From NCBI GenBank assembly GCA_963812135.1, contig CAWETU010000001.1, positions 192,001 to 256,000 on the forward strand: a DNA stretch of 64,000 nucleotides, read 5' to 3'. The notes under the pieces were generated by a model. That model saw nothing but the letters and a program-made list of their open reading frames with translations. It made no database searches and had not been told where the DNA came from. This document shows, one piece after another, positions 10,907-14,950 of this stretch. The position numbers and the translations under genes are program-made. The stretch is from Vulcanimicrobiota bacterium. GTDB lineage: Bacteria; Vulcanimicrobiota; Vulcanimicrobiia; Eremiobacterales; Eremiobacteraceae. Numbering within the stretch: the stretch's first letter is position 1; every line of letters begins with the position of its first letter.

Positions 10907-11881
10907 ATGGACCTCGACAAGCTGATCATCTACCGCGGTGGCGAGTTCGTACCGTACGCCGACACGAAGGTCGGCGTCCTTGCGCACGGGCTCAACTATG
11001 GTACCGGATGTTTCGAGGGCATCCGCGGCTACTGGAACGCCAAGGCCGGACAACTCTATTTCTTCAGATTGCTCGAGCACTACGAGCGCCTCGCGTCCTC
11101 TGCCAAACTGCTGTTGATGGATCTGCCAGAGTCGCCCGAACGGTTGTGCGCGCGCACGGCCGAGCTTGCGCGCCTCAATAACTTCCGGCAGGATCTCTAC
11201 GTCCGGCCGCTGGCCTATAAGAGCGCCGAAGAGATCGGCGTCCGGCTCCACAACGTCTCGCACGAATTCACGATCACGGCCGTCCCTCACAAAGCCTACT
11301 TCGATTCATCGATGGGCCTGCGGGCTTGCATCTCATCGTGGCGGCGCATCGACGACAACGTGGCGCCGGCGCGCGCCAAGCTCACCGGCGTCTACGTCAA
11401 TTCGGCGCTTGCCAAGACCGAAGCAGTCTCGAACGGCTTCGACGAGGCCATCATGCTCAATAAGGAAGGCCACGTCGCCGAGGGCAGCGCGCAGAACATC
11501 ATGATCGTGCGCAACGGAACGGTGATCACGCCGCCGGTGAGCGACGGGATCCTCGAGGGCATCACCAGACGCACTATTATTGAACTATGCCAAAAGGATC
11601 TCAACGTCGAAGTCGTCGAGCGAAGCATCGATCGCAGCGAGCTTTATGTCGCGGATGAGGTGTTTTTGGTAGGGACAGCCGTCGAAGTGACTCCGGTGAT
11701 CGAGGTTGACCACCGCCCGGTCGGCAGTGGCAAGGTCGGCCCGAAGGCTACGAAGCTCCGCGAGATGTACCGCAAAGCCACTGTTGGCGAGCTTTCCGGC
11801 TACCGCCATTGGCTGACCCCAACCTACGATGTCGGCAATAGCGCCAAAATCCACCAGGCGGAAAGAGCGGCAGCTTCCTAG
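10907..11881 (+). CDS. ilvE: Branched-chain amino acid aminotransferase (PLP class IV)
   Basis: LNYGTGCFEGIR, YVRP, AKLTGxY, EGSAQN, LEGITR, GTAVEVTP. Confidence 0.95.
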   Translation: MDLDKLIIYRGGEFVPYADTKVGVLAHGLNYGTGCFEGIRGYWNAKAGQLYFFRLLEHYERLASSAKLLLMDLPESPERLCARTAELARLNNFRQDLYVRPLAYKSAEEIGVRLHNVSHEFTITAVPHKAYFDSSMGLRACISSWRRIDDNVAPARAKLTGVYVNSALAKTEAVSNGFDEAIMLNKEGHVAEGSAQNIMIVRNGTVITPPVSDGILEGITRRTIIELCQKDLNVEVVERSIDRSELYVADEVFLVGTAVEVTPVIEVDHRPVGSGKVGPKATKLREMYRKATVGELSGYRHWLTPTYDVGNSAKIHQAERAAAS

Positions 11882-11933
11882 TTTCTTCCCAGAACGTTCT
11901 TGCGGGAGCTTGTTTGCCCCACCTATAATGAAA

Positions 11934-11949
11934 TGTGAGCAGCGTCACG
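11934..11949. promoter_or_regulatory. CRP/FNR-family-like binding site upstream of the small peptide gene
   Basis: aaaTGTGA-gcagcg-TCACG, a 9/10 match to TGTGA-N6-TCACA. Confidence 0.55.
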
Positions 11950-12181
11950 TCTAAACGCTGTAACAAACGATATCAATTGTTAGTCGCGGTCACTCTTGCG
12001 AAACTGTTTGGCAGAACATATCCAAGACGCGATTTGAATGGTATCGTCGGAACACTTGGGGGGCTGATTCCACATCTTGAGCTTTAGAGAGTCGTAGAAA
12101 ATGCGACCGCACCGCCTGGCAGAGGCGGTGCGATCTAAGGCGTTGTGGCGTCCTCTCCGAGTTCGCAGCTGGAGGCTAACC

Positions 12182-12358
12182 ATGCACGAGCTAGGTGGAT
12201 TCCCTCACGCCTTTTCTTTACACATCGGCTTCTATCTGAGCCAACTCGCTGGTTGGGCACATGAGCTTGAGACGTTGATCACAGCAGGGCCAGCGCACAC
12301 TGCTGAGACTCTCATTACAGCCAACGTGCACACCGCCGAAACGCTGATCACGCAGTAG
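12182..12358 (+). CDS. 58-aa peptide with three tandem HxxETLIT cores (putative signal/precursor peptide)
   Basis: SD GGAGG 6 nt before the ATG; MHELGGFPHAFSLHIGFYLSQLAGW-AHELETLITAGP-AHTAETLITAN-VHTAETLITQ; the repeats are conserved as protein but use different synonymous codons. Confidence 0.8.
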   Translation: MHELGGFPHAFSLHIGFYLSQLAGWAHELETLITAGPAHTAETLITANVHTAETLITQ

Positions 12359-12373
12359 CGACATCGGATTAGC

Positions 12374-13696
12374 CTACGCGATCTCGCGGCACAGCAAGTC
12401 GACAAGAGCTGGGTCGTATTGGACCCCGGCGCGTGCCGCGATGGTGCTTAGAGCTTCTTGTTTGCCAAGAGCCCTAGCGTTGTTATGTCCAGTCAGAAGT
12501 TGTAGGTAGTCGCGGGCGATCGCGATTATGCGCGAAGGCGCGGGGATGCGTGAACCCCGCATTCCATGCGGGTACCCACTGCCGTCGAACGCCTCGCACT
12601 GGTGCTCAACCGCGTAAGAAACATCCTCAGGAATAATCTTGGTAGCCTTGCGTAGGACCTGTGCTCCTAGCATAGGATAACGCAGGGCTTCGCTTTGCTG
12701 GGCCGGCGTTAGATTGACGCCTCCACGCACTTCGGGTCCTAGCTTGCATTTGCCGATCTCGTGGAACTCCGCTGCCCACCCAAGGCTCTCCAATTCAGTT
12801 TTGGACATCTGTATTTTCCGACCGATTTGCATGGCAAGATAGCGTACGTCGCCTGCAAATTGTGCGTCTTCGGGACTCATGAGACCGACGAATTCGCGAA
12901 TCATCTCGTGGAACTGGTTCGCCACGAACTCACGCTCGTCACGGGCTTCAACTGCTTGAATAATACGCTCGAACATTCTCGTATGGGCTACGACGTAGTA
13001 AAAGACGATGGCGCCAAGAATCCCGCCGAACGTGTACATTCCGGCTAAGAGATACGCCCATAGCGCTGCAACGAATCCGGCTCTCCAGTACCGCACAAAC
13101 GAAGCAGGCTGCCCGAGAATCGCGAATCCGGTGATCACGAGCCCGTTGTTTACAGTCTGCCAGACCATCCCAATGCCGACGATCCCGACGAACACCAGGA
13201 TAGTGGAAAGAAAATGAGGCGCGTGAGGAATGATTGCCGACACCGCGGAGTAGCTGTAGATCATCGCGTAGATCGCGAGCACTGTGATCCCAAGTTGCCC
13301 GGCCAATGCGTTCACAGCCGCTCCAAGCGGACGGCCTGCCTCCCTCAATCGGACGTGAACCGCACTGAGGCCTATGATCCCTAATGGTAGAGCCCACCAG
13401 CCGATGGTAGCCGCAGCGGCCGCCAGAATCGCAGCGACGGGAGCGTGGACCGCCCGGAAGCTCTCTTGCGGGCGTTCATTTAGCGCGAGAAAAACAGCGA
13501 CGACGGCAACAGTAAAGAGCGTCATTGGCGAAAAGAAATCGAAGTGCGGCGGAGCTACCTTAAGCAGCACCGCGCCAGCCCCTAACAACGCCCAGTAATA
13601 GGCTGCTTTGACTCCCTGGCGCCACGCGACTACGTCTCGTGTTTGAACGCCAGCTGTGCCGATCCGATCGAGTTGCGCCTGCCCTGCCATGGCCAT
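12374..13696 (-). CDS. Multi-TM sensor with a degenerate HD-GYP domain
   Basis: About 7-8 hydrophobic segments, then HEIGK (for HDIGK), HP-like YPMLG, EHQCEAFDGSGYPHG, SRIIAIARDY and GVQYDP. The start could be 13696 or 13690. Confidence 0.88.
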   Translation of the reverse strand: MAMAGQAQLDRIGTAGVQTRDVVAWRQGVKAAYYWALLGAGAVLLKVAPPHFDFFSPMTLFTVAVVAVFLALNERPQESFRAVHAPVAAILAAAAATIGWWALPLGIIGLSAVHVRLREAGRPLGAAVNALAGQLGITVLAIYAMIYSYSAVSAIIPHAPHFLSTILVFVGIVGIGMVWQTVNNGLVITGFAILGQPASFVRYWRAGFVAALWAYLLAGMYTFGGILGAIVFYYVVAHTRMFERIIQAVEARDEREFVANQFHEMIREFVGLMSPEDAQFAGDVRYLAMQIGRKIQMSKTELESLGWAAEFHEIGKCKLGPEVRGGVNLTPAQQSEALRYPMLGAQVLRKATKIIPEDVSYAVEHQCEAFDGSGYPHGMRGSRIPAPSRIIAIARDYLQLLTGHNNARALGKQEALSTIAARAGVQYDPALVDLLCREIA

Positions 13697-13796
13697 GACG
13701 CTCACCAGAACCTTTCGTCGGTACGCTACGCCCGGATAACGAACGGTCACACGAACGTTAAATGGGCTCGCGACCCTGTGTATAGTTTATCGAACA

Positions 13797-13854
13797 TGTG
13801 ACCCGCGTCCCCGCATGATTGTGACGCGGCTAACACAGTATGACGCAAGTCACG
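13797..13854. promoter_or_regulatory. Three tandem CRP/FNR-like sites upstream of the HD-GYP gene
   Basis: TGTGA-N6-TCCCC (13797), TGTGA-N6-TAACA (13820), TATGA-N6-TCACG (13839). Confidence 0.5.
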
Positions 13855-13887
13855 CACATATGTTCGACGAACGGACTTTGTGTATAA

Positions 13888-14865
13888 CTAATTTGAGGGT
13901 GAAGGGTCGGGGCTCGCCATCAGGTCATCAGGGCTCGAGGTCGGCTGGGCTTGAGGAGCCGCATCAGTTTCCGCAGCGAGGAAAGTGTCGTAGGTGGCCT
14001 TCGAGGCGCGCCGGATGAAACGGGCCCCGTCATCGAGGTCCTCGAGGTGGGTCGTGATCACGCAGATGATGTAGGGCGACCCCTCGAGGTTGACAATGCC
14101 GACGTCGTTGAGCGTGTCGTGCAGCGTCCCCGTCTTGTGTTCCACGACGACGCCCCTGGGGAGCGGCTTCGGCAGCAGATCGTTATGCCGCTGGCCGGCC
14201 AAGATCGAAAGCATCAGGTCGCTCGCGGTTTCATTCACCAGCCTGCGTGCGGCGATCATGGAGAGCAGCCGCATCATATCGTTGGTGCTCGTGCGCAGCG
14301 TCCGAATGCTGCGATCGGACGCGTGAATGCTGTCGCCGAGCCGCGTCTGCGTTAACCCAAGCCCGTCCATCGTCGCGTTGATGTTCTGCCGACCGACCAG
14401 CCGGATCAGCATATTCGTCGCGGTGTTGTCGCTGTTCGCGATCATGATACGGACGAGGTTGAGGACCGAGAAGCGCATGCCGGCGTCCATGTCGCACAAC
14501 GCGCCATATCCGCAGTCTCTATCTTGCGGCAACAGCGTCACCTGGCGTTCGAGCCCGAAACGGCCGAGCCATACTTGACGCATGACCTCGACCATCACCG
14601 CGAGTTTGATGACGCTCGCAGCCGGTAGGTTCTCATCGCCGTTGATGTCGATCGGCGTCTGGCCGTCCGCGTCAGAGACAGTGATTGCCACTAATCCGGG
14701 GGTGTCATTCGCGAGGCGACGCAATTGCGGTTCGAGCACATGCAGGCGCACTTCGAGCGCGGTCCGCGGTGAACCAACGACCTGCAGATCTGAACCGGTC
14801 GACGCACTGCTGACGGCAGCAACCAGTGCCGCCGCGATAAGCACTGCCAAGAATGCGAAACGCAT
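13888..14865 (-). CDS. Secreted serine hydrolase, class A beta-lactamase-related
   Basis: Signal peptide; ASVIK (SxxK), SDN and HKTG motifs. Confidence 0.9.
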   Translation of the reverse strand: MRFAFLAVLIAAALVAAVSSASTGSDLQVVGSPRTALEVRLHVLEPQLRRLANDTPGLVAITVSDADGQTPIDINGDENLPAASVIKLAVMVEVMRQVWLGRFGLERQVTLLPQDRDCGYGALCDMDAGMRFSVLNLVRIMIANSDNTATNMLIRLVGRQNINATMDGLGLTQTRLGDSIHASDRSIRTLRTSTNDMMRLLSMIAARRLVNETASDLMLSILAGQRHNDLLPKPLPRGVVVEHKTGTLHDTLNDVGIVNLEGSPYIICVITTHLEDLDDGARFIRRASKATYDTFLAAETDAAPQAQPTSSPDDLMASPDPSPSN

Positions 14866-14950
14866 AGCTGTAGACGTGCCTTCCCGCCCCAAAATGTGGC
14901 CGCCTCCGTCCGTGCAAGAATCGAGGCCTACGTCACGAACCGACCAGCCG

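Follow-up and report, generated by a model that had tools for sequence, protein, structure and literature searches.

The peptide signals known from bacteria are read by histidine kinases or by RRNPP proteins. In the agr and ComQXP pherotype cassettes, a variable signal and its membrane receptor are exchanged between relatives within conserved flanks. Here we analyse a locus in a 64,000-nucleotide stretch of a Vulcanimicrobiota bacterium (contig CAWETU010000001.1, positions 192,001 to 256,000; hereafter the window), where a small peptide gene and a gene for a membrane protein with an HD-GYP-fold domain converge between positions 11882 and 13888. We argue that the two form a module with species-specific types in which a processed signal peptide would be read by a new class of receptor, and we put the probability of this reading, which rests on sequence comparison, at about 60%.

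Several described systems are relevant to this pair. Group III SHP precursors are cut before Asp or Glu, and the mature peptides of SHPs include DIIIFPPFG, DILIIVGG and ETIIIIGGG (PMC3679016). Intragenic duplication of the signal has been reported for the Phr and NprX autoinducers (PMC5199041). The ligand of MASE9-type sensors is unknown and is thought to bind within the membrane (bioRxiv 10.1101/2021.11.05.467447); the same HD-GYP review states that metal-ligand and RxxK/KPG residues are needed for catalysis and binding. In the S-component FolT, the pocket-closing loops L1 and L3 face outward (PMC4820897).

The block 11882-13888 contains two genes, which are convergent (12182-12358 on the plus strand and 12374-13696 on the minus strand) and separated by a stop-to-stop gap of 15 nt; its GC content is 55.9% against 64.1% for the genome, and only 0.8% of 1394 segments of 2 kb are as low. 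An earlier description made from the letters alone (the sequence-only reading) had proposed an AT-rich block with just two convergent genes whose stops lie 15 nt apart, the larger encoding about 7-8 transmembrane (TM) segments and an HD-GYP domain. This layout is borne out, with 8 predicted TM segments and an HD_5 match at residues 284-431. The features of the pair are the following.

12182..12358 (+): peptide precursor gene, 58 amino acids (aa), with GGAGG 7 nt 5' of the ATG, a pN/pS (non-synonymous over synonymous differences) of 0.43 and public homologues
12182..12268 (+): His-rich amphipathic leader, aa 1-29, without a basic n-region; tandem GGVL motifs in most other genera
12269..12283 (+): core 1, E-T-L-I-T, aa 30-34, His at -3
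12305..12319 (+): core 2, E-T-L-I-T, aa 42-46, His at -3
12338..12352 (+): core 3, E-T-L-I-T, aa 53-57, His at -3
12374..13696 (-): receptor gene, 440 aa, with an 8-TM domain, a linker helix and a degenerate HD-GYP domain
12983..13618 (-): membrane domain, aa 27-238, MASE9-like, with a fold like that of energy-coupling factor (ECF) S-components and pocket loops that probably face the cytoplasm
12377..12889 (-): HD-GYP-fold domain, apparently a pseudo-enzyme, aa ~270-440 (Z 20.8, root-mean-square deviation (rmsd) 3.0, 183 residues aligned to 4mcw)

The 58-aa open reading frame (ORF) is, to judge from its codons, a real gene, because the E-T-L-I-T cores of its three H-x-x-E-T-L-I-T units vary at silent sites only. 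Within ten precursors, the differences between one core and another amount to 84 synonymous and 4 non-synonymous codon changes (pairwise and therefore non-independent), and pN/pS is 0.43 over 12 non-overlapping peptide pairs; both values argue that the ORF is under selection as a protein. Cores thus appear to be kept identical within one precursor yet to differ between species. Counts out of 27 refer to distinct loci with downstream DNA, duplicates and the contig-edge loci G344 and G393 being excluded; the unpublished genomes G128 and G232 are included in alignments and counts, and G344 in the range count.

Each precursor consists of a His-rich amphipathic leader of 25-30 residues, followed by a core that begins with Asp or Glu and continues hydrophobic. 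They are acidic or neutral, with 0-3 Lys/Arg per peptide and 2-7 His per precursor at positions that are not fixed, and in some genera the leader resembles a TM segment, with a mean hydropathy of up to 2.2. Of the 27 loci, nine of this genus type have 3-4 cores and 17 have one, while one locus of another genus has doubled its own core independently; the claim that the peptide is multi-core is therefore right for this locus, with its three cores, and describes an exception at the level of the family, where 17 of 27 loci are single-core. In public data there are 102 additional homologues, where the peptide itself is called as a protein, one of them labelled Ca. Eremiobacteraceae. All 102 have Asp or Glu within the last 14 residues and together they show 42 distinct 5-mers, with exact repeats in two; the search profile itself contains the acid feature and some of the 5-mers begin at an earlier acid. 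Most precursors lack Cys, a single one occurring in 11 of the 102. In three homologues (P0234, P0235 and P0246) the leader has three GGVL repeats rather than two, so that the leader unit duplicates too. Pfam and NCBIfam scans of the 27 peptides gave nothing meaningful, and Atlas returned a 0.77 match only.

The pairing of the two genes is fixed. Downstream of the receptor gene, 27 of 27 loci have an ORF of 35-64 aa that converges on it and carries a ribosome-site motif; it ends between -96 and +20 nt relative to the receptor stop, and with G380 added the count is 28 of 28. In the other direction, 23 of 29 genomes have one match each to the peptide profile, always adjoining the receptor. The sequence-only reading had made its proposal depend on receptor homologues carrying a neighbouring peptide ORF and on the peptide not travelling with other genes, and both expectations agree with these counts. 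Of the other 29 family genomes, 24 have the membrane part of the receptor; none of 371 genomes outside the family does, and there the peptide profile has weak matches in 11 genomes (E 0.02-0.1, two with internal stops) that were treated as chance. A profile search against 1.84 billion representatives gave, among the best 150 matches, about 15 close rows spanning the membrane part and one distant full-length protein (P0114), the remainder being matches to the HD domain. The pair is found in one family of Vulcanimicrobiota (Eremiobacterota) only, composed of uncultured soil bacteria; it is to this phylum that relatives bearing a name assign the organism.

Neither gene was found in four genomes of the family (G041, G277, G355 and G381), of which G041 alone is informative: it is 97% complete, its ilvE lies mid-contig with further genes behind, and both peptide and receptor are missing. 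No ilvE was found in G277 or G355, and that of G381 lies at a contig edge. In G041 (L090:2525-3350) two ORFs of about 130-140 aa, near-duplicates in tandem and of no assigned family, come after ilvE. G227, a genome of this genus, has a second pair, of g5 type, on a 2.9-kb contig (L031/L057, G227:C32); it may be a contaminant of the bin or a further type that was acquired. In three assemblies of few contigs (L006, L026 and L028/L030, from G071, G261 and G389) the receptor frame is broken, by sequencing indels or by real loss.

Core type and receptor vary together, which is the test that the sequence-only reading had proposed. This is seen in sister genomes, in the receptor tree and along the DNA. 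Between G071 and G087, with cores ETLIT and DQMIN, protein identity is 0.94 in the neighbouring ilvE and serine hydrolase genes (described below) and 0.54 in the receptor TM domain; between G134 and G227, with cores ETIIA and ESLVN, the values are 0.91, 0.91 and 0.58. In the more distant G000 and G278, which both have ETLIT, they are 0.82, 0.73 and 0.73. The DNA identity of G071 and G087 is 0.84-0.90 from ilvE through the leader RNA, falls to 0.48-0.77 over the two ORFs and returns to 0.94 just upstream of the receptor; the profile of G134 and G227 is alike but weaker (0.74 upstream of the receptor). Both comparisons are independent of the unpublished genomes. In a receptor tree of 15 rows, four E-T-x-I cores cluster (support 98/98) and so do two D-x-V-G-W cores of different genera (100/99). 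For the receptor, four clades defined by flanks or by genus are rejected by approximately unbiased (AU) tests (p 8e-7, 4e-5, 1e-3 and 1e-11). These clades were picked after the discordance had been seen, and they were tested under a model (LG+G4) that can reject some true clades; the p of 1e-11 and the D-x-V-G-W grouping depend on the unpublished genome G232. On the simplest reading, the two coding regions have been exchanged as a matched unit inside fixed regulatory flanks, and the pattern is the one shown by the specificity types of peptide signals. That peptide and receptor are direct partners in some way is very probable.

The receptor combines a membrane domain with a degenerate signalling domain. 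The membrane domain has the MASE9 layout, with 8 TM segments including a short hairpin fused to HD-GYP, and by Atlas features it scores 0.91, with 196-200 features in common, against clusters with MASE9 in 35% and 13% of their members. The Pfam MASE9 profile (PF20972) matched 0 of 32 receptor rows and nothing in the genome, the control being positive in T. maritima and T. thermophilus; the domain is MASE9-like and is not counted as a member of MASE9. The predicted model of the whole protein (pLDDT 83.5, pTM 0.58) matches 4m5c (Z 13.3, rmsd 3.3, 181 residues aligned), and four further S-components score Z 11.5-11.9. A Foldseek search with the membrane part gave no clear match. The loops that correspond to the S-component pocket contain 1.4, 2.9 and 2.3 Lys/Arg and the loops alternating with them 0-0.6; the parity of the segments relative to the HD-GYP domain, which is cytoplasmic, agrees with these charges, and the pocket is thus predicted to open toward the cell interior. 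The polar residues E74, R75, Q134, Q180, N184 and R205 are conserved and lie in the cytoplasmic half. The sites that discriminate core classes within this genus lie there too (5 of 5), and in two other small comparisons they are spread over both halves; a search for specificity residues left only sites 110 and 130 common to two independent comparisons. Complex prediction with the membrane domain and the full precursor was uninformative (score 0.00, mark 0.32).

The N-terminal tail of the receptor, M-A-x-A-G (13670-13696, minus strand), is kept across most of the family although it lies outside the membrane helices. In proteins of the NikM type the N-terminus plugs the pocket, and by analogy the tail might do the same here.

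An HD_5 match is present in 32 of 32 receptor rows (near-duplicates included), and most of the metal ligands are replaced. The first His (HSxRV) is Phe (F280) in 32/32 rows, the Asp of HD (position 313) is Glu in 29/32 and Gln in 1, being kept in 2, and the His of xHP (position 340) is Tyr or Phe in 32/32, with Tyr in 30/32. In HHE the second His is lost in 32/32 and the first in 18/32, the Asp of ADxF (position 395) is Arg in 31/32, the RxxK position is Y/H in 31/32 and KPG is not conserved, whereas GxP is kept. The domain thus appears to be a pseudo-enzyme with a re-purposed site and not a phosphodiesterase. Since metal ligands, KPG and RxxK are replaced family-wide, hydrolysis of cyclic di-GMP (c-di-GMP) is unlikely, and a link to c-di-GMP, if there is one, would therefore have to be indirect. 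The genome encodes another membrane protein whose HD-GYP domain is partly degenerate, with 27% identity to the receptor, at L003:1444-2787 (minus strand; G000:C1 near 1050800-1052100), between a cupredoxin-like gene and a convergent histidine kinase, with no small peptide seen; it is possibly a paralogue or a partner of the receptor.

Taken as signal and receptor, the pair could work as follows. The amphipathic leader would bring the precursor to the membrane, where cleavage in front of the conserved Asp/Glu, for which an intramembrane protease with housekeeping functions (RseP/Eep type) is the likeliest candidate, would free an acid-first hydrophobic peptide of 5-10 residues, in three copies per precursor in this genome. 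The peptide would leave the cell and reach the S-component-like pocket of a matching receptor, probably from the cytoplasm after re-import by an oligopeptide transporter, or else from within the membrane. Binding would shift the linker and the dead HD-GYP domain, which might act on the cyclic-nucleotide network by protein contact, or else by binding nucleotides without catalysis. Both promoters would be controlled by a CRP-type regulator, which may close a feedback loop. The genome holds genes that could serve these steps: M50 proteases at 5 loci, 17 SBP_bac_5 matches, 6 GGDEF, 2 EAL and 4 class III cyclase matches. The 17 SBP_bac_5 matches are a large set of oligopeptide-type binding proteins for a 2.8-Mb genome.

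Several points weigh against this reading. The sequences show a real peptide gene, a fixed pairing, an apparent joint exchange of the two ORFs, the loss of catalytic residues and the conserved boxes; cleavage, export, re-import, direct binding, the side of the pocket and the output are steps that we infer. M50 and oligopeptide-binding genes are common housekeeping genes. There is no AgrB in this 98% complete genome, no C39 peptidase in any of 31 genomes of the family, a search that did not extend to unlinked maturases of ribosomally synthesised and post-translationally modified peptides (RiPPs), and no DUF5317 (PF17248) in 401 genomes of the phylum, the control genomes with DUF5317 being the same two, T. 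maritima and T. thermophilus, that have MASE9. Lys/Arg occur among the first 8 residues in 0 of 27 leaders and in 4 of the 102 further homologues. As to the receptor, ten S-component entries score Z 8.6-13.3 over residues ~27-229, values that helical bundles can reach by chance, and the side of the pocket depends on aligned ranges and loop charges. The divergence of the receptor at four-fold silent sites is high in 7 of 7 pairs (0.57-0.77), so that exchange and fast change are not separable by silent sites; the late choice of clades for the AU tests counts on the same side. Joint exchange, finally, speaks for a mutual need of the two genes and not for exit of the peptide, toxin-immunity pairs behaving alike. 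Three elements of the sequence-only reading are accordingly weakened: (i) an exported and processed peptide, given 0 of 27 basic leaders, no C39 in the 31 family genomes and no AgrB in this one; (ii) sensing by the TM domain from outside, as the likely pocket loops appear to face the cytoplasm; (iii) an HD-GYP domain acting directly as a c-di-GMP enzyme, given the replacements described above.

The same points make the strongest case for a modulator that never leaves its cell. An unprocessed micro-protein at the inner leaflet would plug its acidic core into the pocket as part of a CRP-controlled feedback, in analogy with MgrB, a small-protein modulator of PhoQ. No export or processing gene dedicated to the peptide was found and the leader has no basic n-region; the pocket loops, the conserved polar residues and the 5 of 5 discriminating sites of this genus lie in the cytoplasmic half, and the leaders of some genera, with mean hydropathy up to 2.2, are TM-like. 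Tandem cores, each with its own His at -3 and its spacer, make most sense if they are freed singly, however, and a private pair would have little reason to occur in dozens of types exchanged between species; moreover, the discriminating sites lie over both membrane halves in the two other comparisons. We regard this explanation as unlikely, though worth keeping in mind.

A toxin with its immunity protein would also be exchanged as a pair. In this case the amphipathic peptide would be a membrane-active antagonist or a type I toxin, checked by its leader and by the convergent transcript, and the membrane protein would neutralise it; an amphipathic helix, a strongly folded leader and, in this genus, a possible antisense read-through fit such a system. 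The peptides are nevertheless acidic or neutral, with no more than 3 Lys/Arg, and what varies and duplicates is the core and not the helix, while the pair is single-copy at a fixed chromosomal site and the partner keeps a conserved domain of signalling type. Taken together, this is very improbable. It is about as improbable that the two genes lack any direct partnership, being linked genes that hitch-hike while peptide and receptor have another target and another ligand: physical adjacency alone gives joint exchange, and the interaction of this pair is read from sequence, but the breakpoints bracket just the two ORFs in two sister pairs, both genes are gone together in G041, and the receptor clusters by core type in two parts of the family. 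Sensing of metal or pH, with the His-rich peptide carrying metal to a NikM/CbiM-like pocket, is likewise very improbable, since, for all its 2-7 His per precursor, its CbiM matches and a top membrane match (4m5c) that is a component of a transition-metal transporter, the His positions vary, vitamin-binding S-components score about equally, and variable, co-exchanged cores are not predicted by it.

The preferred reading, a processed signal and its receptor, includes regulation of both genes, for which the following elements are found around the pair.

11900..11929 (+): probable sigma-70-type promoter of the peptide gene, TTGCGG, 18 nt, TATAAT (11924-11929), with the start site placed by sequence
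11934..11949 (either strand): CRP-type box TGTGA-N6-TCACA with 1 mismatch, over the presumed start site (operator position)
11950..12181 (+): long structured 5' leader: UGGCAG-loop hairpins at ~12005-12018 and ~12105-12135, pyrimidine tract at ~12151-12160
12105..12135 (-): possible terminator of the receptor mRNA, formed by the leader hairpin on the minus strand and a T-run (terminator-like match)
13797..13812, 13820..13835 and 13839..13854 (either strand): three CRP-like boxes upstream of the receptor, all kept in 6/6 same-genus loci

The promoter at 11900-11929 was not reported by a consensus promoter scan. Of the 27 regions upstream of the peptide gene, 26 contain a CRP-type box, 205-306 nt before the peptide start; it is perfect in 17, has one mismatch in 8 and two in 1, and the remaining region is too short. 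The CRP-type box follows a TATAAT-like box at a distance of 2-8 nt in 17 of 27 loci and would therefore cover the start site. Upstream of the receptor, at least one CRP-like box with up to 2 mismatches is found in 17 of 21 loci. Each gene had been said to have its own CRP/FNR-like boxes, and 11934-11949 and 13820-13835, conserved in relatives, confirm it; the 2.79-Mb genome has only 27 sites this close to the consensus (one mismatch or none), these two among them. By eye, other near-perfect sites lie in front of a type IV pilin gene beside the CRP gene, an operon of minor pilins with two perfect boxes, the gene of a sigma factor, that of a LysM protein and two GGDEF-EAL genes (G000:C1:1495049, 1850063, 1850136, 1871047, 1515875, 445308; C5:225749). 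The minor-pilin site and one GGDEF-EAL site are likewise perfect in G071, and CRP is present in 30 of 31 family genomes. These sites suggest a CRP pilus regulon in the family, with the CRP gene itself inside a pilin cluster.

The transcribed leader is also distinctive. The fold of 12054-12200 has z = -4.3, none of 200 shuffles being as stable, and the pyrimidine tract would be able to pair with an upstream G-run or with the ribosome site. TGGCAG occurs in 21 of 27 leaders, on variable stems and in two copies in this genus, while five g5-type loci have a UGGGC pentaloop; among 13 hand-picked leaders, 5 of 5 stem pairs show changes on both sides. Rfam gave no family at gathering score for the leader (one chance-level match, E 0.2). 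The leader (11950-12181 of the window, L006-L037) is a candidate for a new cis-regulatory RNA or a protein-binding site. A wider regulon of UGGCAG hairpins was considered and is unsupported, the genome showing no enrichment of such hairpins: 2 of 1130 sites have stems of at least 6, against 0-0.9% for 24 permuted hexamers. The arrangement of hairpin and T-run is present in 9 of 9 loci of this peptide type and in this genus only; a receptor mRNA reaching 12105-12135 would possibly be antisense across the whole peptide ORF.

The neighbours of the pair are conserved as well.

10907..11881 (+): ilvE-type aminotransferase (Aminotran_4), fixed neighbour in 23/23 loci, outside the module
13888..14868 (-): class A beta-lactamase-fold serine hydrolase (Beta-lactamase2), usual neighbour, in 20/23 loci

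The serine hydrolase is a neighbour, without evidence of a part in the module. No RiPP maturase or peptide exporter is seen among the neighbour clusters of 23 loci, read by eye, as the sequence-only reading had found for this one locus with respect to RiPP-modifying enzymes and transporters. A recent horizontal import of the block as the cause of its low GC was considered and rejected, because ilvE adjoins in 23 of 23 loci and receptor GC is below flank GC in 13 of 15 relatives. The receptor and ilvE trees are concordant on most genus-level groups, which, together with the fixed ilvE, indicates that the module is old and resident.

A literature search turned up no description of this peptide/HD-GYP receptor system, most subscription papers being outside its coverage, and the architecture had likewise not been recognised in the sequence-only reading. 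Neither part belongs to a known signalling family, and the pair would therefore be new at the level of receptor class. We see about an even chance that it represents a third class of peptide-signal receptor, built from an inverted ECF S-component-like pocket, an acid-first peptide of which there are dozens of specificity types, and a dead HD-GYP domain within a CRP-controlled pilus and cyclic-nucleotide network. If so, MASE9-like sensors would have a first class of ligand, a transporter-type pocket and a dead phosphodiesterase would have been re-used as a receptor, and specificity-typed peptide communication would reach Vulcanimicrobiota, a soil phylum most of whose members are uncultured, where it would serve in kin recognition; the UGGCAG-loop leader RNA would be new as well. 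The candidate ligands are named, short and synthesisable and matched and mismatched receptors exist in nature, so that the question of what a membrane sensor binds is directly testable.

Compared with known systems, the locus shares with agr and ComQXP a variable signal-receptor cassette in conserved flanks and a membrane receptor, and differs in having no histidine kinase, response regulator, AgrB or modifying enzyme. From double-glycine and RiPP systems it is separated by the absence of C39 in 31 family genomes and of a linked modifying enzyme among 23 loci. Riboswitch-controlled small membrane proteins (PMC13724677) are another arrangement. With ECF S-components the receptor would share a six-helix pocket fold, closed in those proteins by loops L1 and L3 (PMC4820897), to which extra helices and a fused HD-GYP domain are added here, with pocket loops apparently cytoplasmic. 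The MASE9-HD-GYP proteins T. maritima TM1467 and S. venezuelae HdgA have, as here, 8 TM segments with short hairpins before HD-GYP; at this locus there is no Pfam MASE9 match, and the active site is replaced by fixed new residues, with GxP kept. For those proteins too, the available text (bioRxiv 10.1101/2021.11.05.467447; PMC6205966) mentions no partner peptide. HdgB, a degenerate 6TM HD-GYP protein, demonstrates that degenerate membrane forms exist, and the available text of PMC6205966 describes no peptide partner for it. Shewanella HnoD offers the case of a dead HD-GYP domain acting by contact on an active c-di-GMP enzyme (bioRxiv 10.1101/2021.11.05.467447); it is a soluble response regulator, and no partner enzyme is linked to this locus.

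The peptide side is closest to two signalling systems. Rap-Phr and NprR-NprX are similar in the intragenic duplication of a penta- or hexapeptide, in the diversification of specificity and, on the reading proposed here, in a receptor that acts by contact (PMC5199041); Phr has a secretion signal and is co-directional with rap, and Rap is a soluble tetratricopeptide repeat (TPR) protein, none of which applies here. In group III SHP/Rgg, the small gene is downstream of the receptor gene and convergent with it, as at this locus, and the precursor is hydrophobic, with a C-terminal mature part starting with Asp or Glu (PMC3679016), to which the acid-first core found here would correspond. The receptor here is an 8-TM HD-GYP-fold protein in another phylum instead of the cytoplasmic regulator Rgg, the leader has no basic N-terminus, and no sequence relation was found with Pfam or NCBIfam. 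The module works most like SHP/Rgg yet, with no cytoplasmic receptor of TPR type, it is not a member of SHP/Rgg or of RRNPP; Eep-type processing followed by oligopeptide re-import, as in SHP/Rgg, would suit the genes present in this genome.

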